A stretch of 63,357 nucleotides of DNA, counting the filler, from Craspedostauros australis (taxonomy: Eukaryota), in the NCBI GenBank assembly GCA_030167865.1. It is 4 parts of 4 records of this genome, joined end to end, with 100 filler letters (N's around TTAATTAATTAA, not from the genome) between each part and the next. Parts side by side here need not be neighbours in the genome. Positions count along the whole stretch, not along the records: positions 24,513 to 36,173 come from JALAGF010001261.1; 3 more parts are not named here. One strand, 5' to 3'. The translations under genes were made by a program, and so were the position numbers. The first letter of the stretch is position 1. Every line of letters begins with the position of its first letter. The notes under the pieces were generated by a model that was not told the DNA's origin, ran no database searches, and worked only from the letters and a program-made list of their open reading frames with translations. This document shows, one piece after another, positions 18,701-49,829 of this stretch.

Positions 18701-21288
18701 CTCAAGTTTTCGAGGTGACTTGGAGGTGGCGTTTGGCGACTTCGATGCCCTTCTTGGAATAGGTCATGCATGTACCAGAGAAACGGACACCCCGCAAGGA
18801 GGCCTATCGATCCAGAGACTCTCTTTCGTCCCCAGTTTTCCTGCGTGTGCCGAGAAGTAAAGACTACGCTCGATTTGAATGAATGTGATCAACGAGTAAT
18901 ACCCCTATTCACACCCGCAATGAGAGAGAGAGAGAGAGCGAACAAGATCGAAAGCAAGACACATGTCTGTATAGTAGCACGGCTGCCGACGAGGACCTAT
19001 CAACGAGTGCCATGGCCCGCCTTGGCTATTGCCGCCCTGAACACAAGCCATGCAGCTTGATTGCAAAGCGTCCCCTTGTGCAATTCTCCCTGCGGCACTA
19101 CGCCGAGCGACGGAAACCTTCGTATCCGTCAGCAGGTCTCGTCATTAGCTGGTGCCGGCTCAAGGAGATGTCAATGGCCAATGGCATGGCGTCGTGCAGT
19201 ACACACATCTAATGCTGATGCCATATGTGCATGGGCATTACATGTAGGGCCGTGATAATAACTGGCAATATGTCAGGTGGGTGGAGTGTGCGAGCGCAGA
19301 GCAGTGCCAGCGGCTGTATCCCCCCTTTCGTTCCATGTCGAGCATTTCATATCCTATTTCGCCCCTGTTGTCATAGTCGTATGCTCCAAATTGATATGAC
19401 CACGAAAGGCGGTTTCGCTACGGGCGGGGGCTTACCTGTTGACTCTGCCCTGACCGATCATTCAATGCACGACCATTCCACCAATCCAGCCCTGGAGCAG
19501 CTCGTAGTTGTGTGGTTGGTCCGGCACAGGGAAGCCTGAGACAGTATGCCCACACAAAACGAACGGGATTTGTGAGACTGAACGAAGAACCTCACGGGGT
19601 GATGTTGACGTCGACGAGATGAAACGACGCAAAATGTGAAAGAATGGAGAGACGAAGAGCTTTGGGCGTTGAGAGTATCGAACAGCATCTTTACGATTGC
19701 CTTGCCTTTCGTGGCGACGAGTCCACAGGGAACGCAACCCGAGGCTTGCCAGCGTCGGTATCGGCTAGGCTACGAGTATGACCCAGAACAGCGTGGCCGA
19801 ACAACATCTGGCCTGTTTGGAGGTTTTGCGTTCTCTCCTTTGCGGTTTCTCCGCCAAGAGGCGGTGGCGGATGAGAATGTGATTTTGTTTTGCCAACCAC
19901 CCATTTACTCTACTCTACTGTACAATTCCACCTGTGCTGAGTTCGACATGGTCATCAGCAACAACAACGCGAGCAACGCATGAGACAATTGTGAGCGACA
20001 CAGGTCTTTACGACCACAAAGTTGCTCCAACCACGACATTCGCCTCGCCTTTGTCAAGCCGGTTGACATTTTGGCCGTGGTTTGGAACAACGACGCTTTC
20101 GACCCATTCACAGTCAAGGAACCTTGGTACTGGCCCAGGTAGTAGAGGTTCTCCTTGATGGAGCTTAATTGTCAAGGTGCCACCCAAAGATGGGAAAGAG
20201 GAATGCTGTGACTCCGCCCCAGAGTGCTGTTGCGTCGGAAGCCTTTTTCCGTGGGTGTTTGCTACGCGTATTCGTAGAGTACCGCTTTGTGTGTTGGCGC
20301 TTCCGCGCGAAATGATTGCGTCTGCTCTCCACTGTGGCATCCTCAGCTGTCATCGTTGAAGCTGTCCCCATGGCGACACAATCACGCAGCACAATCACGC
20401 AATGAGCGAAGATTGATTTAAGCGGCGGAAATGGCACAAAGCCTGCATCTTTCACTTCACAAAATGTCCACTGGGGGTTGAATGCAAACCTCTATCTCTC
20501 GTTTCGGCAGCCACATTCGATCTCATGGAGGATGGCGCCTGGTTCTACAGGCTTCGCGGACATCATATGTGCCAAAAGAAGCCTTTCGTCATCACGCTAC
20601 TACCTATCTTCTTCCTCTGCTCGAAGGGTGCCGTTTGGAACATGGTTTACTTCCACTCATTCTCGCTTGTTTCCTCTTCCGTCCAACCCTCGGCCCTTCC
20701 GTTGAGACGACACCGCTTCGGAGCCGGGCACAACTGGTTGGACAGTCACAGTCACACTCCTGCCATCGCCGCCATCACCATCCGCCAAGAACTCCAGCAC
20801 CAGCATCAGCACCAGTATCAGCAAAACAGAAGAAGAGAAGAGAAGACACTCCACCAAACAAAAAGTCCCGCCCGAACGAATGGATGGACCGATACATGAC
20901 CCACTCTGGGCTCATTCCGCTCCCGGCGCTACCGCCTCTGACGGTGGTCTTGGTGTGGTGTCCAAAACAAGACCGAGCTCTTTGAGGTTCTCATACCCAT
21001 CGTGTGTGTACATGTGCGCTTGGCAGTACTTCCAATTGTACTTCCAGGGATCAAAAGACGGCCACCGCATACTCACCATAGCTCGTGCCCGACTGGCTGC
21101 GATATCATTTTTATCTTCGGCAAGGTGAAGTGCGCACAACTGTGATAGTCCCACAAAAAAGAAACACCACCAAACATCAGACAAAAGGCAGCAAGGTTGC
21201 AACCGAAAACGACAGGCAGCGGACAGTACGATTCAACTGCTCCACAATCACGACAACGACGACGACGACGACAACAACGACGATAGAG

Positions 21289-23121
21289 ATGGGAACGCAG
21301 ATCTTGCACGCCCAGATCCCGGCAATGGTCCATCACAGGAGCTACAGTAGTGATACGCGCGCCAGCTCAAGCATCAGCGCCAGCACCAACCTCGGCATCG
21401 GCGCCGACACTAATATCAACACCAACGCCAGCATCATCAAAAGCATCAGCCACATCCAGACCCATTTCATGAGCTTTGCTGGGATGAATCGGCAGCAACA
21501 AGAATACGAGTACATGGCGGCCACAGCACCACGCGGAAGCCGCGGGACGGAAACGCAAGGGAAACGCAAACACGAGGATGGCCTGCCACAGACCCACGTC
21601 GATGACGTTGCTCTCAACATCGATGCGTGGTCGGCTGGAGATCTCTTTGCAATCAGCTGTGGTCCTCATGAACTTGGCAGCATTCATCCTGGCCAAGTCG
21701 TATGCCAAGATGCAGACCTGGCAATTAGCAACAGCAACAGGAGCAGCGTTGACGGCAGTGACTGGAAGAAGCGCCGCACAACGGCGAAGGAAATGTCAAG
21801 TACCGATGTTATGCCCGTTGCCGCTCTATCCAGTGGCGTGGCCTTGGAAAACCACTATGCCATGAGCGGAGACAAGGCCATCGCCAAAGAACTAAGCGAT
21901 CTCACAGCGGCAGAGCGAGAGCAGATTTTGCACGATCTGCATGCAGTGGCCCCAGGAATCGAGGTCGCAGACACGATGGTCACCAGGAAGCTTCGGCAGT
22001 TGCAGCTTCGGCTGGAGGGTATCAAGGACAAGAAAGATTACGAGAAGGCTCTCTTCCTCAACCCAACCTACGTCAGGTCAGAGAGATTCCAGCTGGCTTT
22101 TCTGAGGGCGGAAAGGCTTGACGCAGCGAGGGCGGCCAACAACATCGTGAGCCATTTCAAGCTGAAGCGCATACTCTTCGGTGTCGACAGCTTGAGCAGA
22201 GAGATCGTATGGGACGATCTGTCGCAAGAAGACAAACATGCATACCACCGACACGGATATGCTCTTCTGGGTTGTGACGTGGGCGGTCGAAGGATCATTG
22301 TCGGCAACGTTGTCGGCAACACCGGGCCCAACCGATCAATGGCCGCAGACAGAGCCGCATGGTTTTCTCTCATGCCCAGCATGCTGGATGACTGGAGCGT
22401 CCAGAAGCACGGAGCTGTCCTGATCGACACATGCCAGGACAGGTTCCCATCACCAGAGCACGAGGCGATGCATGCAGCCCAGCTCTCTAACACGCCTTCA
22501 CTCTTCAACGCAATTCCGTTTCGGGTTGCTGCAACGCATGTCTTCGTCCATGACGAACGATCTCAAACAGATCTACTCGTGCGCTCGGCCGTGTCCCTCC
22601 TCCCTCAACAGATCCGTCTGCGGCTGAGGCTCCACCATGGCTCTCCAAGCCAGTGCATGGATTCACTTAGATGCTTCGGCGTCACACCGGCCATGCTCCA
22701 GGTTGATGAAGACTTGAATTCCACGGGATCAACACTCAACAAGATGCTCGAGGAACAACTCCAAACTGCCGTTGCGAAGCAACAGAGGCAATCAACGATG
22801 GAGCGCAAGCTCTTCCCTCGTTCCATCGACATCGTCTGCGGCAGAGGCTTCCCCTACAGAACTTTCTCCGGAAACGTTCAGTTCTTAGGCTTCCTGCAAT
22901 CGTACAAGCAAGAGTACGGCACAGCAGGAAGCCAGTTTGCCAAGACAGCTATCACTGTCGAGATATTGCAGGTTGTGAAGGCAAAGGGCATCCGTTTCCT
23001 CAAGCGATGCGTCAACGGCGACTCATGGGAGGAAGTCCCCGACGACAGCGCGCGGATCAAGATTGCCATGACATTCCGCAACCTTTCCAGAAGACGTACA
23101 GGATCAGGCAGTGCCATCTAA
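21289..23121 (+). CDS. Diatom-type CRAL-TRIO-like domain plus C-terminal DUF6824-like domain protein (start uncertain)
   Basis: KELSDLTAAEREQILHDLH..YEKALFLNPTYV..FQLAFLRAERLDAARAA..HFKLKRILFG..REIVWDDL (CRAL-TRIO-N-like). C-terminal DIVCGRG..GNVQF..Y..KTAITVEILQVVK..GIRFLKR..WEEVPDDSARIKIAMTFRN (DUF6824-like). Confidence 0.75.
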   Translation: MGTQILHAQIPAMVHHRSYSSDTRASSSISASTNLGIGADTNINTNASIIKSISHIQTHFMSFAGMNRQQQEYEYMAATAPRGSRGTETQGKRKHEDGLPQTHVDDVALNIDAWSAGDLFAISCGPHELGSIHPGQVVCQDADLAISNSNRSSVDGSDWKKRRTTAKEMSSTDVMPVAALSSGVALENHYAMSGDKAIAKELSDLTAAEREQILHDLHAVAPGIEVADTMVTRKLRQLQLRLEGIKDKKDYEKALFLNPTYVRSERFQLAFLRAERLDAARAANNIVSHFKLKRILFGVDSLSREIVWDDLSQEDKHAYHRHGYALLGCDVGGRRIIVGNVVGNTGPNRSMAADRAAWFSLMPSMLDDWSVQKHGAVLIDTCQDRFPSPEHEAMHAAQLSNTPSLFNAIPFRVAATHVFVHDERSQTDLLVRSAVSLLPQQIRLRLRLHHGSPSQCMDSLRCFGVTPAMLQVDEDLNSTGSTLNKMLEEQLQTAVAKQQRQSTMERKLFPRSIDIVCGRGFPYRTFSGNVQFLGFLQSYKQEYGTAGSQFAKTAITVEILQVVKAKGIRFLKRCVNGDSWEEVPDDSARIKIAMTFRNLSRRRTGSGSAI

Positions 23122-24412: not shown

Positions 24413-24512
24413 NNNNNNNNNNNNNNNNNNNNNNNNNNNNNNNNNNNNNNNNNNNNTTAATTAATTAANNNNNNNNNNNNNNNNNNNNNNNNNNNNNNNN
24501 NNNNNNNNNNNN
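24413..24512. other. Artificial contig-joining linker (N44-TTAATTAATTAA-N44)
   Basis: Exactly 100 nt; central 12-mer gives stops in all six frames; same layout at 36174 and 38543. Confidence 0.97.
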
Positions 24513-25444: not shown

Positions 25445-25667
25445 CACACCACACAACCCCACACTCGAGCACATCAACAACAGACATCGAATTGCCACTC
25501 ACATTCATCACACGGTGCATAGTACTCATATTATACTAATACAAGCTATTGAAGACACACCATCGATATCTCTGCCTCATAGTAGATAGCTCAGACTACA
25601 CACTTCCTTGACAGCCAATCCAACGCCAAAAGACCACCAACCATCAACCATCAACCATCCTCTCAAC

Positions 25668-27164
25668 ATGCCGAATGTCACGAATGAACAATTCCTTGGT
25701 GCTGCCTGGGCAGGTGACTTGTCGGTGTTGAAGCAATGGAAGAAGCAGAACAAGACGCAGAATGAAGGCGTTGATGTCAACATGGTTACAGGCAGGGGAC
25801 GTATCACTCCCCTTCATTTGGCATGCTACGAAGGCCAGCTGGAGTGTGTGAAGTATCTCATCGAATCATGTGAGGCGAACGTCAACTGCCAAAACAACAA
25901 TGGTATCACTCCCCTTCATCACGCATGCCGCAACGGCCAGCTGGAGTGTGTGAAGTACCTCATCGAATCATGTGAGGCGAACATCAACTGCAAAGACCAT
26001 GATAGTTACACTCCCCTTCATCGGGCATGCATGAACGGCCAGCTGGAGTCTGTCAAGTACCTCATCGAATCATGTGAGGCGGACATCAACTGCAAAACCA
26101 ATGATGGTTCCACTCCCCTTCATTGGGCATGCCACAACGGCAAGCTGGAGTGTGTGAAGTATCTCATCGAATCATGTGAGGCGAACGTCAATTGCAAAAC
26201 CAACAATGGTTCCACTCCCCTTCATCACGCATGCCGCAACGGCCAGCTGGAGTGTGTGAAGTACCTCATCGAATCATGTGAGGCGAACATCAACTGCAAA
26301 GACCATGATAGTTACACTCCCCTTCATCGGGCATGCATGAACGGCCAGCTGGAGTCTGTCAAGTACCTCATCGAATCATGTGAGGCGGACATCAACTGCA
26401 AAACCAATGATGGTTCCACTCCCCTTCATTGGGCATGCCACAACGGCAAGCTGGAGTGTGTGAAGTACCTCATCGAATCATGTGAGGCGGACATCAATTG
26501 CAAAACCAACAATGGTTCCACTCCCCTTCATTGGGCATGCCGCAGCAGCCACCTGGAGTGTGTGGAGTACCTCATTGAATCATGTGAGGCAAATGCCAAC
26601 TGCAAAACCAACAATGGTTTCACTCCCCTTCATGATGCATGCTACAACGGCCGCCTGGAGTGTGTGGAGTACCTCATCGAATCATGTGGGGCGAATGCCA
26701 ACTGCAAAGACAACGATGGTTTCACTCCCCTTCATCACGCATGCTGGGAAGGCCACCTGGAGTGTATCAAGTACCTCATCGAATCATGTGGGGCGGACAT
26801 CAACTGCAAAAACAACTATGGCAACACTCCCCTTCATTGGGCATGCATGAACGGCAAGCTGGAGTGTATGGAGTCCCTCATCAGAGGACTTTCGCCTTCA
26901 GTCCACCCACAACTGCAACAACTGCAGCAACGCTTACAACAAAACGAGCAAGAGAATGAACAGCCACAAGAACAGTTGGGACAGCAGTTGAAGCGAAAGA
27001 AGCAAGAGAATGAACACAAACACAGCAGTCACAAGAGGACCAAAATCAACATTGAAGAAGACAGCTCAGATCCTTCCAACCTGAGAACAGGGCAGACACC
27101 ATCTTCGTATGTGGACAGGACGACCGACAACAACCAATCAAGACAAACTCCGAAGTCTTCATGA
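25668..27164 (+). CDS. Ankyrin repeat ORF, 11 x 34-aa repeats with high internal identity; 5' part of a disrupted ANK-BTB gene
   Basis: TPLHxACxxGxLECVKYLIESCEAxxNCK repeats at a 102-bp period from 25803 to about 26890, followed by a Gln-rich coiled coil and a basic NLS-like segment (LKRKK..HKRTK). Confidence 0.9.
   Translation: MPNVTNEQFLGAAWAGDLSVLKQWKKQNKTQNEGVDVNMVTGRGRITPLHLACYEGQLECVKYLIESCEANVNCQNNNGITPLHHACRNGQLECVKYLIESCEANINCKDHDSYTPLHRACMNGQLESVKYLIESCEADINCKTNDGSTPLHWACHNGKLECVKYLIESCEANVNCKTNNGSTPLHHACRNGQLECVKYLIESCEANINCKDHDSYTPLHRACMNGQLESVKYLIESCEADINCKTNDGSTPLHWACHNGKLECVKYLIESCEADINCKTNNGSTPLHWACRSSHLECVEYLIESCEANANCKTNNGFTPLHDACYNGRLECVEYLIESCGANANCKDNDGFTPLHHACWEGHLECIKYLIESCGADINCKNNYGNTPLHWACMNGKLECMESLIRGLSPSVHPQLQQLQQRLQQNEQENEQPQEQLGQQLKRKKQENEHKHSSHKRTKINIEEDSSDPSNLRTGQTPSSYVDRTTDNNQSRQTPKSS
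25803..26890 (+). repeat. 102-bp tandem repeat array (about 11 units) with a 306-bp higher-order duplication
   Basis: Units start at 25803, 25905, ... 26823. Units 2-4 (25905-26210) recur almost verbatim as units 5-7 (26211-26516). Confidence 0.95.
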
Positions 27165-27707
27165 TCACCGTCCCATCCATTGAGACACTGATCGGCAAAG
27201 GAATCCAACATCAGCACGCGAATGATGGCGCCGAAGATGGCGCAGCCCCCATGCAAGTGACCGTCCCTCTTCTCAACCTACAACCCAAACACGTCTGATA
27301 CGTCCTCCAATGCATCTGCACAGCCAAGATATCCTTTCATGACAGCGTTCGTGACAACGCTGCTGCTCGCGTCGGCGCTCACATCGGCGCTCACACCAGC
27401 GCTCACCACGATGCATATGCCTCTCACCAGCCAACCCCTACCCACACTGGACAGGATGGTCTGCAACAGCTGATCCTTGTGGCCAATGAGTTCGGCTTCT
27501 GGCGACTCAAGCTTGTTCTTGAAGCGGAGTTGGCCCGCAAACATCTCGAAGAGAACACCATGATAAATGCGTTGATATGCGCCGATCAACACAACTGCTT
27601 GGTGTTGACGGATGCAGCAATGAGAATGGCAGCTGAAAATGAGAAAAATATGTTCACTCATCCAGATTTCAGCAAGCTGATTCTACAACCCCAACTGATG
27701 GGAGGCA
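27056..27707 (+). pseudogene. BTB/POZ plus BACK-like (SPOP-type) domain, out of frame with the ankyrin ORF and with an internal TGA
   Basis: Frame from 27062 reads QLRSFQPENRADTIFVCGQ..IKTNSEVFMITVPSIETLI..VTVPLLNLQPKHV*YVLQCICT..LQQLILVANEFGFWRLKLVLEAEL..INALICADQHNCLVLTDAAMRMAAEN..FTHPDFSKL. TGA at 27296-27298. The LINE 3' tail begins at 27708. Confidence 0.75.
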
Positions 27708-27887
27708 TGTTGTTGTTGTGTCACATAGACTATAGTTTTACCTATGCGCCGATGGCGCTTTTGTACCGCCTCGTTTATTCTGCATGTATCATACAGCGGG
27801 AACGGATAAAGTAGAGGTCGTGCAGTCGGAGCCTGTTCGTGTCGCGATGCTGGCCGGGTGGCGCTGTCGAGCCGCGGCGTATGCAAG

Positions 27888-30800
27888 CTAGCAAGGCGGG
27901 GCTGCCGACGAGGCGGGCCGCCCGGACTGGTGGGATTCTGACACAGCGCGCCTCAGCCATGCCACTTGCGTTGGGGGGATGGTGTCGGCCACGTGAGGCA
28001 TGGCATGGAGCATCACGAGCAGCCACTCTGCCTTCTTGGGCGTCGTGCTTGGCACCTGCTGTGCGATCTGGCGAAGATGCACCGGAAGCGAGGCGAGCGG
28101 GAGCTCCCTTAGCGCCGTGGAGTACGACTCCATGCGTTGGGCCATCAGGCTGCGCGTTCCATCCTCATGCAGCTGGCGGTTCCTGGACGTCCACTGCTGA
28201 AGGATCATGAGCCACAGCTCGTGAGTCACATCAGCCTGCCAGTGGACTGGCCGTCTCCGCGCTGCTGTTGGCTCCGGATTCGGGCTGAACTGCTCCCATG
28301 CGGTGGACCACCCTCCCCAAAGAAGTCCGTCCCAACCGACACCATGCTGCGCCACCTCAATGCCATGCGTCGCCGTGCGCCGAATGCCTTGCGGCGGGTT
28401 GCCGCCTTGCTGGAGGATGCGGAGGGCTTTGACCAGCAGTTGGGCCGCCTCTCGTCGGACCCGAGGAGGCTGGATCACTTTCCGAATTCGTTGAACTGCG
28501 TCTTCCCATATGGCCTTGCTGTCATCGCTTGGGCAGCGCACCACATGCCAATTGTCTTCGACGGCCCCGCACCTGGGGCAGGCCCCGGAGGCAGACTGCC
28601 CACGCCGGCACATGTTCCTGCCGGACGCCGCGTTCCCGGACGCCAACTTGAGGATGGCCCGTTGCTGGCCGCCTCTCCATCGGGACGACGCCCTCATCAT
28701 GGGCCTCCAATCGACTGCGTGGCTTGCGGCGGACCCCCAGCGCTGGCGCCACTTGTTGCGCAGGCCCTGAGTTGCCGCCGCTTGGGAGACGGCCTCGTAG
28801 CTGGCCTCTGAAACTGGCCCGCTGAGGTCTGCAACTACCCAGCCCGCTGACTGTGGCGCCCCGGAGACCGAGCCCCACGATTGGGCTTGGTCGATGGCCC
28901 GCCAATGTCTGCCGGCCTCGTGATCCGCCACGACATTGAGAACCTCCCAGTCCGACAACTGGTGGTTCGCCCGTGCGTCCGCATGCCCCTTGACGTGCTG
29001 GACCTTGAACCGCACTGCTGTCGACTGCAGCTGACGCTGGATCTCCTGCCGCAGATCGAAGTCGGCTTCGTCGGATGGGATGAGCCGTGCCCTCGCGCTG
29101 GACCGTATTGCTTGCATGTTGTCACACGCAATGGTGGCAGACCCCTTCACGTCCGCCCACGCTGCGAAGGCCCGCAGGAACTGCATGGCCAGTAGCACTC
29201 CCGCTGTCTCGGCTCTGTTCGACGTCATTGGCTGGGAACCTTCCGGGACCTCAGAGCAGAGCAAGATACCTGAAGTGGGTTGGACGAGGCTGTCCTGAAT
29301 CACCACCGCAGCGGCGCCTCTGTTGTCTTTGGCCGACGCATCGCAGCATGCCACGCACTGCCCGCTTGCGATGGCAGTCGAGATGGATGCTGTCGACCCG
29401 TGGATGCGCACGTGGCGGAGCATTTGGTCTGCGAGGCCTCCCATGCCGACGATGTGCTCTCGGAGCGTGGTCGCCAGCGCAGGGCGCAGGACTTGTCCCA
29501 GCGAGAGCACCACCGTGGTGCCTCGGTGTGCATGGGCGTCTGCGACGGCCTCCCCGCGGACTCGACGACATCTGTACTCCGTGTGGAGAATTTGCTGCGG
29601 CGATTGCCTTGGCCGATGGCTCTCGAGCAGGCCGGACTGGCTCTGCCGCACGCGGAATCTGTCCGCGCTGTGCCACGGCCCCAGAGGCTTGCGCAGTGCG
29701 GCGCCCGGCCGGTCCCTGGCCAGCAAGTGCAACACCAAGGCATCCCACGCGTGCCACGCAGCTTGTGACGGGGGCACCGTCTTCGGCCATGGGAGGTCAC
29801 TGTCCGCACGTGTAGCGGGTAGATGGCGCAGCACCATGGGGTGTATCTTGCCCCCTTCGGCATCGCAGATGTCCGACAGCCACAGTGCTTGCAGATGCAC
29901 CCGGACTGCGTTGGCCTTGCGGAGCTCCACTTCGTCGCTCGTGCAGTCGAGGAACCGGCTCATGATAGTGACATCGCCCACGCGAGGGGGCTGTAAGGCT
30001 GGTGACACCTGTCGCATGTGAAGCTCGGACTGGCTCATCATGTCAAAGGTATGTGACCACCACGTGTCGTGGGTCCACTTCCGCCAACGGCGATGGAGCT
30101 GCTGGATCCGATCGACGACTCCAGACCACAGTTGAAGCTGCAATAGAGATGACCGTAGGAGCCGTCCTGTGGTGGTGTCAGCCTCAAAGTGTCGCCAAAC
30201 CAGCTCCAAGTGCGCTTTGCATTGCACTGTGAACAGGTGAGGTATGCCAAGGCCATTCAGCCGCCGGGGCCCGTGCACATACGGCCTTGCAATGGACCTC
30301 ACGATCCCCATGTGTGGAAGCGCCACACTGAGCGCGGGCCTCATTATGGTCTCGCACTGGCCGCGGGTGAGCGTGGTGGCAGCTAGCGAGTATGTGAGGG
30401 CCGGCCACAGGACCGCCTTGAGCGCAATCTCGGTGTCCTGCTTCGAAATCCGGGCCGTCTGGATGTGGGCAGCCCACTCGGCAGCCTTCGCCCGAAGATA
30501 TTCGGCGTGCTCCCTCTGGTTGCCGTCACGGCGCGACATCATTCCAAGGTATTTGCTGGCCTCGTCCACTGGCTTGTGTTGGAGAACCTGCCCTTGCTCG
30601 CCGTCGCCCCGCATTGTTATGTCTTGGGGCTGGGTTCGCCTGTCGTATTGCCATCTGTAGTTGCCCCACCGGAAGCGGACAAGCTGCCAGAAGCTTTTCT
30701 CAGGTGCCAGGCAGCCTCCTGAAGCGGAGAGCATGTTCTCCCACAAGGAAACCATGTGTTGGAACTCGCGTGACTGCGATGCTGCGTCGGAACTCTCGAG

Positions 30801-33482
30801 CGAGTGAACGAGATTGGTGTCGTCCACATATGCGAAGCAGACCACCCGGTGCTCCCTTTGGCCCGTCTCGCCGTACTGGAACCCATAGCCTTTGTTCTGC
30901 ATTCGCTCGATCAGCGCCGAGCTGATCATGAGCCATCCCGTGGGGGCAGCTCCCAGGCCTTGGACGAGGCCTTGGATCGGGTTGGAGAGACCTGCACCCG
31001 AATAGCTGGTATTGGATACACCTGACCCCATGCTGATGCGATGCTCCATGCGCTGCAGTGTGCGCAGCACGCTTTCAATGGGAGCTTTGGGGACGCCTTG
31101 GCGGCGCATGGCCATGCCGAACGCGGGGTGTGAGATGCGGTCGTAACACCCTTTGGCATCGTTGGAGCATACCGCCGTCGCTCTCCCAGAGATCCTCATA
31201 ATGTCGTCCGCCATGCAGACGTTGGCGAGCACCTCCTGAGCGGTATGGTTCTGGCGGCTGCCGTATTGGTCCTCGGCAATGGTCCCAGTGAGCTCAGCGT
31301 GGCCCCTGGCAGCCCGGCCAAGCTGCCTGGTGTTCATATTGAAGTCCCCTTCCATTAGCCCTATCGTGCGGGTCTTGGTGACAGACAGATTTCCTGGCTG
31401 CTTGCGCAACTGAATGTCGGTGCACTGTTGCCACCTCCGCAGACTGTAGCCTGTGCAGTACGGAATCGACCGCATGATCGCGTCGATGGCCGCCAGCTCT
31501 GGGCGCCTTGTGTTCGCCTTCCAACAACCAAAATGAATGCCGGACGGACCGGAAGACGTGCGCTCCTTGATCTTCCGCCACCCGTCTGTGTGGCACTCCG
31601 TGGAGATGACGGTGTCGGACGGGCGCCACGGAGTGACTCGAGGCGACTGCTGGAGAGCTATGAGAAGCTCTGACGTGCCGTGCTGGACTTGTGTCGGCAC
31701 CAGCCCCATGATGATGGCGTCGGCGCCCGCGGTCGTGCCGTACTTGCCCACGAGTTGGCTCAGGCCTGGCTGGCACAGTTCGGAGGACCACGCTTGTTGG
31801 TATTTGGCGATGTTCGTCGCACAGCATGCTCCTGCTACCTCTTCGGAGTCTGTGAGAATCTCCCCGCTGCCGCCTGGCCCGTCGTGGACGACCATGCTGA
31901 CCTGTGAGTCGCTGGCCGTGCCTGCCAGAGCTTGCTTGATGCGTCTGAACGTCGCACGGGTCTCCTCCCGTTCGGCCATCTGCTTCCTGTATTTTAGGGG
32001 ATCCCCGCCACCTTCTTGGATGAATCCCTCATTCGCTCGGAGGAAATCGACTCGGTGTTGCGCCGCCAGCCGTTTCTCCTTCTTGAGCTGACGCCACGTC
32101 TTGTTTCGCTCGACTGTCATGTCTGCCGTGCTCATGTCACGGGTGCGGACGTGCTCCAGGTGCGCCTTCTTCTTCAGCCTGTCGATGGTGGATCCTTTGA
32201 CCTGGTGGCCCGACCTTCGCCGCAGGGACTCGGTCCAGAACTGATGGGCTTTCTGAATGCGGTTCACCAGTGGCGAGTACGGGACGTTTCCCACTCGGAT
32301 TTTGCGGCACGATCGCTCTGCTTTGAGCATAGCCTTCGTGCGATCCGCATCAATGTCCTCGATTGCTCTCGCTTGCTCCTGGGTGAGGGGCGCCCCTGTC
32401 ACCTCCCGCTCCAGCGCGTTGGCGCGCTCCAGCAACCTGCTCTGTCGAGCCGCTTCGGCGTACGAGTCGAGATACCGGCTGACCGTGGCCGGCCTTTGCA
32501 GCTGAAGCCTGCGACCGCGGAATGGTTGTGTTGGACTGCGGCCTCTGCCCATGAGCTGTTGGGTTGCGTAGTCCACCCATACCATGCGATGGTCCCACGG
32601 ACCGAATGGTGTGGCCCCTGATTGAGTAGCCATCGCCTCCGGAGTGGACCAGATGCCATCGATCTGTACGTTGCTGCGGTTCCGAATGTGGGTGGCTGCT
32701 GACTGTGGGTGCTGCGTGGAAAGTGCCTCTGTCATTCCTTCGTCAGCCAACATCGCACTCACTCGGGACTTCCTCACGTCCATATTGACATCGCCACCCA
32801 GGATGATCGTCTCACCCGCTTGACGCCATTGATGAAGCTGGCTTTGCAACTCACTCAGGTGGAGGTCGATGGGATCCGCGTCGATGCCCACTGCAGCCGC
32901 ATTGGACGCCTGTTGGTTGTACACCGTTCCTGGGGTTTTGGTTGACCGGTTTGCTACGTAGGTAGCCACCAGCCGCACCTTGATGTGGCCTTTGCCCTGT
33001 AGAAGCACGCTGACCCATCTGCCCCATTGGTGGGTGTCTTTCTCGCTTGTCAATATGCGGCCTCGGGTGCTGCCTTTGATAAGGATTGCTGTCCCACCCC
33101 ACTGCCTCACCCGCATCGGGTTGGACTGATTGTGCGACGTGACGGTGCGTGACTGGGGTACGTTCTGCTGGACGATTTCGTGGAGCCGTTTGTGCCGCGG
33201 CACCTTGCTCCAGTTGATACCAACCTCGGTTAGGAGCATGACGTCGACGTTGTACTTGCGGATTGTCTCCCAGAGGTCCTGATACTTGGGGTCGGTCTCG
33301 TCCATGGGTAGGCCGCCGAGGTTGAGCGCTGCGACCCGAATGTGACCTGGGACGATGTTTTGGGTGTCCCCACCTATGGAGGCGAATTGATCGATCACCT
33401 CTTCCGTGCCTGATCGATCGGTGTTGTCTTGCCTGTTGCTCTGCCGGCCGGACTGCGCGCGGCTTGCAGTGCTTGCTAACAT
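27888..33482 (-). CDS. LINE ORF2 (1864 aa): APE endonuclease, reverse transcriptase, RNase H, CCHC zinc knuckle
   Basis: APE: ALNLGG, DVMLLTE, GGTAIL, ILGGDVN, QIDGIW, DHRMV. RT: SSGPSG, RTIGLM, QYGSR, DAKGCYDRI, GLVQG, AYVDD, KYLG. RNase H: CDAS, RAETAG, ACDN, HVKGHAD, NVVAD. Zinc knuckle: CPRCGAVEDNWHVVRC. Confidence 0.95.
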   Translation of the reverse strand: MLASTASRAQSGRQSNRQDNTDRSGTEEVIDQFASIGGDTQNIVPGHIRVAALNLGGLPMDETDPKYQDLWETIRKYNVDVMLLTEVGINWSKVPRHKRLHEIVQQNVPQSRTVTSHNQSNPMRVRQWGGTAILIKGSTRGRILTSEKDTHQWGRWVSVLLQGKGHIKVRLVATYVANRSTKTPGTVYNQQASNAAAVGIDADPIDLHLSELQSQLHQWRQAGETIILGGDVNMDVRKSRVSAMLADEGMTEALSTQHPQSAATHIRNRSNVQIDGIWSTPEAMATQSGATPFGPWDHRMVWVDYATQQLMGRGRSPTQPFRGRRLQLQRPATVSRYLDSYAEAARQSRLLERANALEREVTGAPLTQEQARAIEDIDADRTKAMLKAERSCRKIRVGNVPYSPLVNRIQKAHQFWTESLRRRSGHQVKGSTIDRLKKKAHLEHVRTRDMSTADMTVERNKTWRQLKKEKRLAAQHRVDFLRANEGFIQEGGGDPLKYRKQMAEREETRATFRRIKQALAGTASDSQVSMVVHDGPGGSGEILTDSEEVAGACCATNIAKYQQAWSSELCQPGLSQLVGKYGTTAGADAIIMGLVPTQVQHGTSELLIALQQSPRVTPWRPSDTVISTECHTDGWRKIKERTSSGPSGIHFGCWKANTRRPELAAIDAIMRSIPYCTGYSLRRWQQCTDIQLRKQPGNLSVTKTRTIGLMEGDFNMNTRQLGRAARGHAELTGTIAEDQYGSRQNHTAQEVLANVCMADDIMRISGRATAVCSNDAKGCYDRISHPAFGMAMRRQGVPKAPIESVLRTLQRMEHRISMGSGVSNTSYSGAGLSNPIQGLVQGLGAAPTGWLMISSALIERMQNKGYGFQYGETGQREHRVVCFAYVDDTNLVHSLESSDAASQSREFQHMVSLWENMLSASGGCLAPEKSFWQLVRFRWGNYRWQYDRRTQPQDITMRGDGEQGQVLQHKPVDEASKYLGMMSRRDGNQREHAEYLRAKAAEWAAHIQTARISKQDTEIALKAVLWPALTYSLAATTLTRGQCETIMRPALSVALPHMGIVRSIARPYVHGPRRLNGLGIPHLFTVQCKAHLELVWRHFEADTTTGRLLRSSLLQLQLWSGVVDRIQQLHRRWRKWTHDTWWSHTFDMMSQSELHMRQVSPALQPPRVGDVTIMSRFLDCTSDEVELRKANAVRVHLQALWLSDICDAEGGKIHPMVLRHLPATRADSDLPWPKTVPPSQAAWHAWDALVLHLLARDRPGAALRKPLGPWHSADRFRVRQSQSGLLESHRPRQSPQQILHTEYRCRRVRGEAVADAHAHRGTTVVLSLGQVLRPALATTLREHIVGMGGLADQMLRHVRIHGSTASISTAIASGQCVACCDASAKDNRGAAAVVIQDSLVQPTSGILLCSEVPEGSQPMTSNRAETAGVLLAMQFLRAFAAWADVKGSATIACDNMQAIRSSARARLIPSDEADFDLRQEIQRQLQSTAVRFKVQHVKGHADARANHQLSDWEVLNVVADHEAGRHWRAIDQAQSWGSVSGAPQSAGWVVADLSGPVSEASYEAVSQAAATQGLRNKWRQRWGSAASHAVDWRPMMRASSRWRGGQQRAILKLASGNAASGRNMCRRGQSASGACPRCGAVEDNWHVVRCPSDDSKAIWEDAVQRIRKVIQPPRVRREAAQLLVKALRILQQGGNPPQGIRRTATHGIEVAQHGVGWDGLLWGGWSTAWEQFSPNPEPTAARRRPVHWQADVTHELWLMILQQWTSRNRQLHEDGTRSLMAQRMESYSTALRELPLASLPVHLRQIAQQVPSTTPKKAEWLLVMLHAMPHVADTIPPTQVAWLRRAVSESHQSGRPASSAAPPC

Positions 33483-36088
33483 TGCGGGAGAGCCCCGGCC
33501 CCGGGGTTGGCGTTGCTGCGCTGGGCGTCGAGCTCCTTGCGTAGCTTGTCGATCTCCGCGCGCTGAATTTCGAGCCTGGCCTGGTTGAGGGACTCCTTTC
33601 TTTGTCGTTCCTGCTCTCGCGCCGCTGCTCTAGTGGCCTCCCTGCGTTTCTCGGAGTCTGTTGTCGCGATGGACGCTGCGTCGCCTGAGCCGGGAACTCC
33701 TGTCACTGCGGAGTTCATGGTCATGTGGGATCCCACCGTAGTTCCTGAACCAAACAGGCTTCTGTAGTCGAGCGCTGCCGGTCGGTGATTCTCCACGGAG
33801 GCAAGGTCTGGTGGTAGATTGGTGATGACCACACTCGCCGGAAACTCCTCCTCAAGGAGGTGCTCGAGGTTGCTGTGGTCTGGCGCATTGTATTCTTTAG
33901 TCGTGCTGTCATACGTGACGTTGAGATTTGCATGCCACGCATCGACGCTGAACCACTTCTCTGTCTTGGTGCCCAGCTGAATGCGCGCAACGGCTGGCAG
34001 GAGGCTCATGATGGCAGAGGCTTGGGCCATGTTCTCCTCAAACACGTGGCCAATGAGCTGGTCGTCATGTGCACGTGCCATGTCAAGGCTTTGAAAGATC
34101 GGCCGTCCTTGATCATCCCGCATGCTCATTATATGGGACCGGAGCGTGACGTGCTCCCGGTTGTCCCCATGAACTGGGTCGTCCAGCTTGGTGACCCCCG
34201 CCGTGTCCACGTACTTGAGACTCGACAGCACTGCCTGATGTTTTTGCACCAGGTTTGTACGGTGCCGTCGCTTCTTCTCCGTCATCTGCTCGTACCTGGC
34301 TTCCGGAAGGAACCGGAGGCGGAGCCCTGCTGGCCGGTTGTCGTCTTCGTTGAGGAGCGCACACATTCGCTCCACCGCGATGGCTGCTTGCGAACTCTCC
34401 GTTTCGACCTTGATAGCACGCCAGGGCTGCATCGTCCAATGCTTGCCGCTGTTCTTGTAGGCTTCTCTTGTGCTGTCGCACACCATGACTATGTTTTTGA
34501 GCTTCCCGCCGACTCTGGTGTTCTTGTGGCGTCTGCGGAACTCGCGGTTGAGTAGCTCCATGGTGCCCTTGACATCGTTGAAGCCTCCAGAATATAGCAG
34601 GAACCCGATCTCCTTGGTACTCTCGACCTGTAGCATGCTGATGTACAGTCCTTCCTGGTGCTTGTAGTAGTACGGATTCATCTCCGCATCTCTTTCCGCA
34701 GTGATGTTGGTGGGGTGCATGTCTGTTGTGATTCTGACGTTGGTATATGCCAGGCCACTGTCCATCGTGGATGCTCGAATGCCTTTGAAGAACACGCGGA
34801 GATCCTGTAGTTCCACTGGGATTTGACCCACGTGCTGGATGTACCGACGCTCGTCGAGTGTATCTTTCCACGGCAGGATGATGGCCGATGGATCAACAAT
34901 TCTGACCTGCCGGAACCATGCCACAATTCTGTCACGGAGTGCTTTGGTGGTGTCAGGCTCAGTTTGGTCAGCCTTGATCTTGAACATGAACCTGGTGGTG
35001 TGCTGGAGGCTGGGCAGCCCGATCAGGATTTGGCTTGTGTCGGATTCCGAGGACTGGTCGTCCATGGCAATTGTGGAGGCCACCTGGCTGAACGTGACGC
35101 CTGCGCGTCGTGCTGCCGTCTTCCGGCTGCCGCTTGGGGCAGGGGCTGTTGGTGCGTGCGCCGCTGGTTGCGGGGGTTGTTTGGAGCCTTCATCGTTCAG
35201 TTGCATTGGCACGTCACTGGTTGGCTCCGGCTGCGTTTCTGGCTCTTCGCCCGCTAGTGCCGCGAATCTGTTGGTGCTTGTGCCCAGCACTGATGTGCTG
35301 CGATTCGGAGATTTCGAGATCTTGGACCGTTTGGCCGGGTTGGGGCCGCCTGGGGATCCTTTGGATGCATCTTGGCCTGCCATGACTGGCAGCTTTGGCA
35401 CGTTGTCTGGGTCCCGTTCTTCATCCTCACTGTCAGTAAGGCTTGTGACGGAGAGATCTGGGGCCGTTCCCACGTCGTAGTTGGTGCCCAGCACCCTACG
35501 CGCTGCCTCCCAAGCTCTGGCTGGCCTGGATCTGGAGCTGACGCCCCCACTTGGCTTGACCTGGAAGACTTTCCGTGGATCGGTGGACGCCATCCGCATG
35601 ATCGCCATGCACACTCGCTTGCGCCTTGGGTCGTCGGACGGGAGACTCATCGGGCCGTACTGCGTGTGTCGCCCATTGAGAACTCGCCGGAAAAACAGTT
35701 CCCAATCCTTGACTGAGGGGTTTGCGGCTGTTGCCTCCGTCTCGTCTTTGCCGTACCATTTGGCTCTGGCGCTCCACATCTGTCCTGCCATGTAGTCAAT
35801 AGAATGGGCACCAGAGGCTGTCGCGAACGGCTCGATGTTGTCGCCGTATTTCCTCAGCGTCGTTTTCCACGTGCTTGTTCTGGGCTTGTACTCGGTGGTG
35901 AACTCTTCGGGAGCCAGTTCAACCATTACTCCACCGTTTGCCTCCGCTCTTTTGGCTGTGACACTGGTGCGATGAGGTGGTTCCTGAGCATGGGGGATAC
36001 TGTGTGGAGGCTGCTCCGTATCGCCGTTGTTGCGGCTGGAAGGTGGCCCTTTTTCGAGGTCCGCCATGGTCGGTTCGTTGCTTGACAT
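33476..36088 (-). CDS. LINE ORF1 (870 aa), with a C-terminal coiled coil
   Basis: Long ORF directly upstream of ORF2 on the same strand; its TAG overlaps the ORF2 ATG region (ATGTTAG). C-terminal charged helix EKRREATRAAAREQERQRKESLNQARLEIQRAEIDKLRKEL. Confidence 0.85.
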   Translation of the reverse strand: MSSNEPTMADLEKGPPSSRNNGDTEQPPHSIPHAQEPPHRTSVTAKRAEANGGVMVELAPEEFTTEYKPRTSTWKTTLRKYGDNIEPFATASGAHSIDYMAGQMWSARAKWYGKDETEATAANPSVKDWELFFRRVLNGRHTQYGPMSLPSDDPRRKRVCMAIMRMASTDPRKVFQVKPSGGVSSRSRPARAWEAARRVLGTNYDVGTAPDLSVTSLTDSEDEERDPDNVPKLPVMAGQDASKGSPGGPNPAKRSKISKSPNRSTSVLGTSTNRFAALAGEEPETQPEPTSDVPMQLNDEGSKQPPQPAAHAPTAPAPSGSRKTAARRAGVTFSQVASTIAMDDQSSESDTSQILIGLPSLQHTTRFMFKIKADQTEPDTTKALRDRIVAWFRQVRIVDPSAIILPWKDTLDERRYIQHVGQIPVELQDLRVFFKGIRASTMDSGLAYTNVRITTDMHPTNITAERDAEMNPYYYKHQEGLYISMLQVESTKEIGFLLYSGGFNDVKGTMELLNREFRRRHKNTRVGGKLKNIVMVCDSTREAYKNSGKHWTMQPWRAIKVETESSQAAIAVERMCALLNEDDNRPAGLRLRFLPEARYEQMTEKKRRHRTNLVQKHQAVLSSLKYVDTAGVTKLDDPVHGDNREHVTLRSHIMSMRDDQGRPIFQSLDMARAHDDQLIGHVFEENMAQASAIMSLLPAVARIQLGTKTEKWFSVDAWHANLNVTYDSTTKEYNAPDHSNLEHLLEEEFPASVVITNLPPDLASVENHRPAALDYRSLFGSGTTVGSHMTMNSAVTGVPGSGDAASIATTDSEKRREATRAAAREQERQRKESLNQARLEIQRAEIDKLRKELDAQRSNANPGAGALPQC

Positions 36089-36173
36089 CGTGATGACTTT
36101 CGTGTTGTTTGCTGTCTTTTTGGTACTGATTTAGATTTTATTTGTGTGCTGTTCGAGTTGTCGGAGTTCCGAA

Positions 36174-36273
36174 NNNNNNNNNNNNNNNNNNNNNNNNNNN
36201 NNNNNNNNNNNNNNNNNTTAATTAATTAANNNNNNNNNNNNNNNNNNNNNNNNNNNNNNNNNNNNNNNNNNNN
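36174..36273. other. Artificial contig-joining linker
   Basis: N44-TTAATTAATTAA-N44. Confidence 0.97.
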
Positions 36274-36357: not shown

Positions 36358-37333
36358 GACCGGCATAAAATCTTGAGGAGGCATTTATGGTAGTTGCGGC
36401 GCTGGATGCGGGAATTGCCATCAATATGACCGCCATCCTGCAAAGCCAGCTTGAGGGGTCGGTCCATCTCAGGGCTACGAGCCTGGGCAGCTCTCTCTAT
36501 GAGGCGGTTCGGCAGCAGTTAGCTGTGGGTCCACAGGCACTCCAAAAAGGAATCCTAGCCAGGCAGCGGGAACCAATGCAGAGCGAATTCCTGCAGCAGC
36601 AACAGTCTCAGAAATCGGAAGCCAAGTGGTCCAGACAGCTCATATGTCGCAGTTGGTGCATTTCCTGGGAGCAATGGAGAGCATGCAATGAGGCATTGTT
36701 CGAAGGTCAAGACTCGGCCAAAGCTGGACAGTTCAGGCCCTACATGACAGGGCAGAGTCACTCTGTCTTCTCCTCGAGCAGGACTGCACCAAGCATCTAC
36801 GACTACTCCAGACGGTGCTGGCCGGCGCTGGCTGGCAAGGCACAGGTCACGGTATGGGTGGAGCAAGCCGCGCTGACGCTACATGCACCGGCCGCCTCTG
36901 GCGCCCTGCTCAAGTGGCTGAAATGCAANNNNNNNNNNNNNNNNNNNNNNNNNNNNNNNNNNNNNNNNNNNNNNNNNNNNNNNNNNNNNNNNNNNNNNNN
37001 NNNNNNNNNNNNNNNNNNNNNNNNNNNNNNNNNNNNNNNNNNNNNNNNNNNNNNNNNNNNNNNNNNNNNNNNNNNNNNNNNNNACTCCCTTGGCAGCACG
37101 CAAGGAGAAAACACAGACACAGCATGCACACACAACGCATAGATTCCGTGCTCCCTTCGTACCCCGCACGAAGGTGAAAGGAGGCGGAGAATAGCGCCAC
37201 CAGCGCAGCCTCATACGTGGGTTTAATCTCTGTGTTATTCTTATTATGGTAGTTGCAAGTGTGTTATTAGCAATGGTATTGCATTAAAAATAGAGAGCAA
37301 TCAACTTTGTATTCAATGCACACAACGACAACA
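36358..37333 (+). mobile_element. 3' fragment of a second, divergent non-LTR retrotransposon (ORF2 C-terminus, 3' UTR and tail); includes gap 36929-37083
   Basis: AVRQQLAVG..GIL..KWSRQLICRSWCISWEQWRACNEALF aligns with the intact ORF2 C-terminus (AQHGVGW..WQADVTHELWLMILQQWTSRNRQLH). Shares a 3' UTR motif at 37144-37207 and ends in ACAACGACAACA. Confidence 0.7.
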
Positions 37334-38542: not shown

Positions 38543-38642
38543 NNNNNNNNNNNNNNNNNNNNNNNNNNNNNNNNNNNNNNNNNNNNTTAATTAATTAANN
38601 NNNNNNNNNNNNNNNNNNNNNNNNNNNNNNNNNNNNNNNNNN
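38543..38642. other. Artificial contig-joining linker
   Basis: N44-TTAATTAATTAA-N44. Confidence 0.97.
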
Positions 38643-48087: not shown

Positions 48088-49829
48088 TTATCTGCTTGTT
48101 GTTGCAGGCTCTGCTCGGTGTCGTCTCTCCGGTTAGTTTGTTTTGTGAGGAGGATGGTTCTCGAGGACTCGTAACCTGGAGGATGAACGGCGCCACTATC
48201 GTATCCGTATGGTCGCAGGTGCTACTGCCGGGATGGACGATGGGTCGTTGCTTGAATATGCTGGTCTAGATAGTTGTATTGTGATGCGTTGTGTTGTGTT
48301 ACGGATACGATTGCTGCAGAACCTGGTGAATTTGTGGATGGACTGCATTCTCATGAAGTTGATGAATCCTTGTGCGCGAGTTCGATGGCCATTCGTACGA
48401 GTAAAGGTTGCCAATCGGCACGATGATTTTGGCGATATCGTGGTGTGGAGGAACTTGAATCCGTTACAGGAACGGTCGATCCCAACCAGAACGTCATGAG
48501 AAAGGCGGAGCAGTTCAGTTCGAATCATGTTGCACTATCATGTAAATAGAGCTAAGTGCCGCAGAGCGCAGTACGTGCGGGCACTCCGGATGCGTCGAAA
48601 CGAATCCCGTGTCCAACATACATGCTCCAACTGCGGTGCTCGTCGGCAGGTATTGCTTCTCTTCTCCCCTTGTGCTATTGCCATTGCCATTGCCATTGCC
48701 ATTGCCATTGCCGTTGTCATTGCAACGGCCAATGATCACAGGACCGCTGGTTGGCTCGTGAGCAGAGCCCAAAGGACTGACCAGGCAAGCGTTCATTGCA
48801 TTGCGGGTCGATTCTGGTGTGAAACAGGAAGGCGGAGAGAGGATGTGTGAGAAAGCAAAGAGCCGTTGCACATGTAAGTCGGGCTTGAACAGAAACCGTC
48901 AACAACCATGAGTGTTTCCCTGCGTCTGCACTACGAGCAGGACTATGATCAGTCTGACGAGCATTTCCGCGAGCAGTACCGTTGCGGCAGTGGGACTCCG
49001 ACGAAGTGATTGTCAACCAACGTCGGATGTCGTGGCATCCTCCCATTATGATATGGTGGGTATCATACTAGTATAATATGTATCATGCTACGACTATACT
49101 TTACGTCCTTGATGGAGCAAGGCTGCCCCTTTACGAGCTGCGAATTATATTTTACTCTATGTACGATGTTGTACGTTGACGCGAGCCAAGTTTTGGAGAG
49201 ACGAAACGCACAACAAAACACGACGCAACAAAACGTGAAACTGCGTCTCGAACACAAGGGAACATCACAAGCGAGAGCGAGAATTTTCGACAAAACACCC
49301 ATCAGAACGCTTGCGAGATCCAGTACTTGTATAGTCTCAACATGATGTGGTATCTATGCCGGTGGTGAGATTCAACCGTGTCAACAAGCGTGTTCTGTTC
49401 TGTGACATCGTGTCGGAGTGCGGTTTGTCGGTTGATGGATCGATCGGTTGATCGATTGTTTTGGATCGTCCCAACAAAGACCAACAGCGGCGGCCGCCGA
49501 CGACCCACCACCCGTTGAGCCACACTCATGCCACTCGGATTTGAGGTATTCTGGAGTAATTACATGATAATAGTAGCAGACGCCACAAGCAGGCAAAGGC
49601 GCAAGGACACAACAGGACACAACAGGACACAACACTGCAAACAGACACGGAGGTCCCACAATCACAGCTGCGATCACAATAGCAATCACAATTGCAATCG
49701 CATCGAACTCGAAGTACGCCACCATTCGCATCGCAAGACCAACAGAGTAATCGCGCATCGCCACCAGAACCTACCAAGATGAGAGAGGAGACGACCAACA
49801 GCGCCAGTGCAAACCGCCGGGCCACAACG

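Follow-up and report, generated by a model that had tools for sequence, protein, structure and literature searches.

Two LINEs on Separate Contigs

The window, by which the whole analysed stretch of 63,357 nucleotides from the Craspedostauros australis assembly GCA_030167865.1 (filler included) is meant, contains a LINE on the minus strand (element 1) and a truncated LINE copy on the plus strand (element 2), whose 3' UTRs have a short motif in common. N44-TTAATTAATTAA-N44 linkers with stops in all frames join the contigs at 24413-24512, 36174-36273 and 38543-38642; the window is thus a chain of separate contigs and adjacency across the linkers has no meaning. Element 1 lies on the contig at 24513-36173 and element 2 on the contig that follows, while an open frame of 679 aa with a DUF6824 domain (E 3.5e-17) is found at 21082-23121 (+).

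Element 1 has an open ORF2 of 1913 aa (27888..33629, -) that carries AP-endonuclease as well as reverse transcriptase domains, in which an RNase H match is weak (E 0.006, under the Pfam cut-off) and a C..C..H..C cluster near the C-terminus is invariant across the family alignment. The ORF2 found no match in the PDB, either by sequence or by profile, and a word search with its C-terminal part was likewise without a match. An open frame of 884 aa without a Pfam family (33476..36130, -) represents ORF1, and the 5' end of the element is lost at the contig joint (36173). Downstream of ORF2, the 3' UTR consists of an upstream part of 80 nt (27808..27887, -), the motif (27745..27807, -) and a tail of at most 44 nt (27701..27744, -), which reads TAGGTAAAACTATAGTCTATGTGACAC(AAC)n. 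The tail abuts a host BTB/BACK exon (27452..27700, +), recognized by protein homology to relatives, that is 81% identical to a BTB-domain protein attributed to a diatom and 60% identical to a second protein. Judged from the sequence, element 1 is an insertion that interrupted this exon: the clear homology of the exon ends at residue 83, which corresponds to nt 27700, hence the end of the element falls in 27701-27744, in or near (CAA)4, and, with the 5' junction missing, can be placed no more closely than that. The host gene spans 25590-27700 (+) and comprises an ankyrin-repeat ORF (25590-27164) followed by the BTB/BACK-like exon, which is broken by the 3' end of element 1; relatives carry on for at least 25 aa past the break.

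Element 2 is represented by a C-terminal fragment of ORF2 (36398..36928, +), identified by protein comparison and by its flanking repeat, and by a 3' UTR, with an assembly gap of 155 N (36929-37083) inside the element. An exact direct repeat of 13 nt (TTATGGTAGTTGC) stands just ahead of the ORF2 homology (36385..36397, +) and again 36 nt past the motif (37244..37256, +); shared words of at least 13 nt occurred in 173/20000 random pairs of equally spaced windows. We read this repeat as the probable target-site duplication of a 5'-truncated insertion at 36398-37243, and such a duplication around a 5'-truncated copy is a mark of target-primed reverse transcription. From the duplication it follows that the ORF2 fragment and the tail would belong to one insertion, the assembly gap notwithstanding, and that element 2 ends without poly(A), with the motif in a subterminal position. 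The variable tail behind the motif is 36 nt long (37208..37243, +), lacks poly(A) and ends in ...TTATTCTTA, the final TTA of which also forms the first letters of the duplication. Overlaps of this kind between the end of an element and its duplication are common when priming by the nicked target takes place at the end of the RNA, as may have happened here. By eye, both elements end in short A/T-rich triplet runs, (CAA)4 in element 1 and TTATTCTTA in element 2, and TRF calls no terminal repeat at either end. In element 2, UCUCUGUGUUAUUCU of the tail (37226-37241) can pair with GGAGAAAACACAGA in the opening part of the 3' UTR (37104-37118), enclosing the whole motif in a fold of 144 nt (z -2.28); a counterpart was not seen in element 1.

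Relationship of the Two LINEs

In an exhaustive protein search, the 186-aa frame of element 2 gave three weak matches, one of which was P0003 (1965 aa; residues 1771-1833), a protein that is itself 28% identical to the ORF2 of element 1 over 1252 aligned positions. When 28 further ORF2 relatives and the ORF2s read from the fetched loci (described below) were used as the comparison set, the fragment had a collinear C-terminal counterpart in nearly all of these proteins, scoring 35-37 bits with P0002-P0004 and 21 bits with P0024, against 1.8 bits with element 1. In a FastTree phylogeny of 33 ORF2s, restricted to rows of at least 1500 aa and hence without element 2, which is too short for placement, element 1 clusters with P0005 and P0006 (support 100), apart from a clade made up of P0003, P0024 and L048 (support 100). 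Together, the fragment scores and the tree place both elements in one clade of APE-RT LINEs, in different sublineages, which bears out the description of the two as highly divergent in the initial annotation of the window.

A Motif Common to Both 3' UTRs

The motif covers 63 nt in element 1 (27745..27807, -) and 64 nt in element 2 (37144..37207, +), as delimited by direct reading, covariance modeling and RNAalifold; on direct reading, both stretches are exactly as they had been quoted. Aligned locally, the two 3' UTRs reach a score of 32 over AAAsGAGGCGG..AGCGCCAyCrGCGCA, a value attained by just 2/5000 dinucleotide shuffles, while blastn of element 1 against element 2 gave no match at the motif. 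A loose pattern, GAGGCGG..GCGCC..GCGC, drawn up after both copies had been seen, occurs at only these two sites of the window, with 0 expected. When a covariance model was built from element 2 alone on a hand-drawn P1/P2/P3 fold and run over both window strands with filters off, element 1 was the top non-self match (27.8 bits, E ~2e-4), followed by a match of 12.3 bits; the same model without structure gave 12.0 bits for element 1 and 9.8 for the next match. Structure thus raises the gap over noise from ~2 to ~15 bits, a comparison that is approximate, as the structured and sequence-only models are weighted somewhat differently.

A chance resemblance of two GC-rich stretches would agree with the shortness of the conserved words, with the lack of a blastn match and with the recurrence of the same words in GC-rich bacterial DNA, where 11 viral and 32 metagenome loci match the pattern. 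Such an explanation is nevertheless very improbable given the rarity of the alignment score among shuffles, the lead of element 1 over the noise in the element 2-only model and the occurrence of both copies at the same place of a LINE 3' UTR, and the pattern-selected loci reach just 12-29 bits in a two-sequence covariance model, vs 83-85 bits for the two elements. At the level of sequence comparison, the view that the shared motif is real and more than chance holds.

Outside the motif, the 3' UTRs are unalignable, as had been noted by eye: the upstream part of element 1 does not align with element 2, and the likeness of the tails behind the motif is not significant (score reached by 2617/5000 shuffles). 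Two similar 11-mers lie 14-17 nt past the motif, TAGTCTATGTG at 27731-27721 (-) and TAATCTCTGTG at 37224-37234 (+), and are by themselves not significant by the same shuffle count. Neither a third copy nor a SINE-like partner was found within the 63-kb window, in which ARAGORN detected 0 tRNA genes, which leaves a tRNA-derived tail without support. A candidate third copy at 49749-49811 (11-12 bits) was taken as chance, since its position coincides with the beginning of an ORF whose ATG is at 49780.

Predicted Fold of the Motif

RNAalifold, run on the model-fitted alignment without imposed structure, gives the same three helices as the hand-drawn fold, namely an outer helix P1 and a hairpin P2 of 6-7 bp, with an A-rich internal loop between them, followed by a GC hairpin P3. 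In the consensus, P1 consists of CCGU/GCGG and three further pairs, P2 has 6 bp (7 bp in the single sequences) and P3 is GCGC/GCGC. For element 1 (-), P1 is predicted to pair CCGU (27805-27802), C (27800) and CG (27798-27797) with CG.GGCGG (27773-27766), and P2 to pair 27796-27790 with 27786-27780 around the loop AUA; the internal loop would be AAUAAA (27779-27774), the linker UACAAAA and P3 the hairpin GCGCC/GGCGC (27758-27746). For element 2 (+), the predicted P1 pairs 37146-37149 and 37151-37154 with 37180-37187, P2 pairs 37154/5-37160 with 37168-37174 around a 7-nt loop, the internal loop and linker would be UGAAA and AGAAUA, and P3 is a putative GCGC/GCGC hairpin (37194-37206). The motif is subterminal and does not form the 3' terminus itself, as read from the element ends, from which it is separated by 36 nt in element 2 and by at most 44 nt in element 1. 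The internal loop of element 1 is a perfect AAUAAA, 29 nt ahead of the final CA of the motif, and GUGAAA is found there in element 2.

Of the 17 consensus pairs, three are changed on both sides, one is changed on one side and none is broken (RNAalifold, n=2). To one of the compensated pairs the AAAsGAGGCGG box contributes its sole variable base, which is C in element 1 and G in element 2 and which stands opposite G and C of the 5' arm. With two sequences this covariation is not significant, since 125/500 shuffles do as well, and the folding energies are modestly better than those of shuffles (z -1.73 and -2.16). Pair probabilities are 0.97 and 0.67 for P3 and 0.3-0.67 for P1, while the alternative GGCG/CGCC pairing has probabilities of 0.03 and, in element 2, 0.32; when the tail of element 1 is included, this alternative appears in the minimum-energy fold. 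The P2 hairpins had been described as entirely different in sequence, which is true in the register used there but fails in the Infernal/RNAalifold register, where the stems share CU...U/A...AG and P2 contains two pairs changed on both sides and one changed on one side. Overall, the proposal that two divergent LINEs have a conserved cis-element in their 3' UTRs is supported in outline, and the alignment, the models and RNAalifold suggest that it is probably structured.

Search for the Motif in Other Genomes

Scans with the pattern returned 11 loci in viral contigs and 32 in metagenome contigs, GC-rich throughout and devoid of LINE features; the metagenome loci all have 55-76% GC. None of them resembled the LINE motif when read by eye with 50 nt (viral loci) or 10 nt (metagenome loci) of upstream sequence. 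Three alignments of pattern loci to the two-sequence model pass over the P2 hairpin, and of two pattern loci whose gene context was read, one (L029) lies beside an alpha/beta hydrolase and a rhomboid and the other (L012) is without a family. Protein-based scans gave 78 pattern matches with 0 ORF2 relatives in viral contigs, and in a prokaryote genome collection 72 pattern matches with 11 ORF2-relative loci (22-32% identity) on contigs filed under metagenome-assembled genomes (MAGs). A C-terminal profile run over those MAGs added 11 further places, four of which were places already found.

The two-sequence model had no match at E<=1 on the resulting 22 loci (L044-L065, including the four re-found), the best value being E 2 on the first 11, and no match on 10 whole MAGs. 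The sequence block is also missing from all nine relatives whose 3' UTRs are readable (L045, L057 and L064, these three being cut short, and L047, L050, L052, L058, L059 and L061), hence the motif is not a clade-wide sequence. In a pairwise alignment of 11 UTRs, only elements 1 and 2, the pair L057/L059 from the same family and one low-complexity match were alike. The initial annotation had tied its proposal to the presence of the motif in other family members; among these distant relatives, which belong to other organisms, it is absent (0/22 loci).

Several features of the relatives' loci were seen in passing. The 3' UTRs of L045 and L050 show, by eye, a similar succession of pyrimidine-rich arm, short hairpin and purine-rich box, and the LINE 3' UTRs of one MAG (G005; L057:1993-2106, L059:721-873 and L061:806-1000) open with a common CCTCC....GGGACGyA; neither resemblance could be distinguished from chance. 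L059 ends in (TCTG)3, and runs of (TTTC)n and (ATTTC)n in L047 and L050, respectively, 130-300 nt past the stop, are possibly terminal repeats. Full LINEs with ORF2s of 1900-1910 aa lie within the first 16-20 kb of the contigs of L045 (266581 nt) and L052 (263298 nt), which are assigned to one archaeal and one deltaproteobacterial MAG, and the L052 DNA becomes GC-rich past ORF2. These contigs could be chimeric assemblies, mis-binned eukaryote contigs or something stranger.

Comparison With Known LINE Tails

The tail of the eel LINE UnaL2 is described as a stem-loop of ~60 nt with an internal loop interrupting its stem, and behind it comes (UGUAA)n, where reverse transcription starts; the tail is given as the only cis element needed for retrotransposition, and partner SINEs carry the same tail (PMC1636434). 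For zebrafish, ORF2 proteins are stated to bind their cognate stem-loops via the region between EN and RT, each being strict for its own tail (PMC4176376), and the same principle is reported for a plant (monocot) L1 lineage, which has a conserved structured 3' end in common with maize and sorghum SINEs (PMC3472496). As far as these accounts describe the UnaL2/ZfL2 tails of the L2 clade, the likeness to the motif lies in a conserved 3'-UTR tail of ~60 nt, a predicted stem that an internal loop divides, a possible short repeat at the terminus where reverse transcription would start, an apparent lack of need for poly(A) and a tail common to different elements. The likeness concerns the design, and there are differences: the C. 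australis motif has a second, GC hairpin and a variable spacer of 36 nt before the end, its terminal triplets are short and not called by TRF, its sharing partner is another LINE lineage instead of a SINE, and the ORF2 has an RNase H-like region, belongs to an unclassified clade and is without a PDB match by sequence. The monocot L1 lineage differs in host kingdom and LINE clade and in its partner SINEs, none of which was seen in the 63-kb window.

With the R2 3' UTR element and with HDV-like and hammerhead ribozymes, the motif has in common that a structured RNA lies in a non-LTR transcript, and it differs from them in that no Rfam model matches: 0 matches were obtained at the gathering score over the whole window, and for 27650-27950 and 37084-37320 the number stayed at 0 even when E values up to 10 were admitted. 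A literature search, mostly at the level of titles, found no account of 3' tails of LINEs from diatoms or their relatives, and the sole family that PMC2806351, in the part consulted, mentions is RTE-like and from a single diatom. Of the claim that the cis-element is undescribed, the part that concerns the sequence stands, as the motif is new so far as searched, while the kind of element is already known.

Template Recognition and Its Alternatives

Because its place, size and general design are those of UnaL2-type tails, the motif is filed with that kind and its function is inferred from it. On balance we favor, with some reserve, the view that a stringent-type LINE 3' tail has its conserved, structured portion in this motif, used for template recognition by the LINE's own protein. 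According to this model, the ORF2 protein would bind the folded motif, that is the stem split by the A-rich internal loop together with the GC hairpin, and so select its own RNA; reverse transcription would begin at the terminal triplets, which could pair with the nicked target, the TTA being common to the tail and the duplication in element 2. The block may have stayed unchanged across two otherwise diverged lineages because the tail is under selection, or it may have been passed between the lineages and then kept. Among the roles that had been put forward for the motif, recognition by ORF2p or its RT appears to fit best, by analogy with the design of stringent tails, while a catalytic RNA does not.

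The block could instead be kept for another RNA function, such as 3'-end formation and polyadenylation, stability, export or translation control, perhaps via a host protein. This is unlikely, although the AAUAAA in the internal loop of element 1, so shortly before the final CA, would suit a 3'-processing signal, the motif lies at least 36 nt from the real 3' end, and a host factor would agree with its occurrence beside two very different ORF2s of one genome and its absence from relatives in other hosts. Element 2, however, has GUGAAA and not AAUAAA, and its copy extends past the motif without poly(A), which indicates that the RNA was not cut at the motif.

A swap of the tail between lineages by template switching or recombination, after which the likeness would be leftover common descent without selection for structure, would account for a block that is common to different sublineages and missing from relatives elsewhere. 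We consider it quite improbable, as the likeness is limited to the block, with both UTR flanks unalignable, and as the changes in the helices are compensated with no pair broken; moreover, a swap would leave a function possible too. The weakest alternative, slightly behind the chance resemblance dealt with above, is a self-cleaving or otherwise catalytic RNA, which is suggested by the multi-helix fold and by the ribozymes that retroelements are known to carry, and which is scarcely credible in view of the missing Rfam matches, the 36 nt by which the element 2 copy goes on past the motif and the few conserved single-stranded parts.

Template recognition by a common tail leads to a further, distinctly tentative and rather doubtful proposition, namely that two deeply separated LINE lineages of one diatom genome rely on a single recognition tail, other tails being in use among their sister lineages in other hosts. 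Given the strictness with which zebrafish ORF2s are described to recognize their own tails (PMC4176376), one tail for two very different ORF2s is not the simplest expectation, which also counts against the template-recognition model.

Implications

If one tail did serve both lineages, either tails would be exchanged between LINE lineages within a genome, or the lineages would have arrived by convergence at an RNA for one common surface of the host or of ORF2p. One would then expect LINE families to cross-mobilize each other, along with SINEs that are as yet unseen, and the competition of P3 with the GGCG/CGCC pairing could act as a switch. The general picture of stringent LINEs is unchanged by these findings. 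Descriptions of LINEs from diatoms and their relatives are scarce, and a defined tail motif of ~63 nt would provide a handle for finding non-autonomous partners such as SINEs and for annotating LINE ends in these genomes, and would allow one to ask whether a single RNA signal is usable by two divergent ORF2 proteins.
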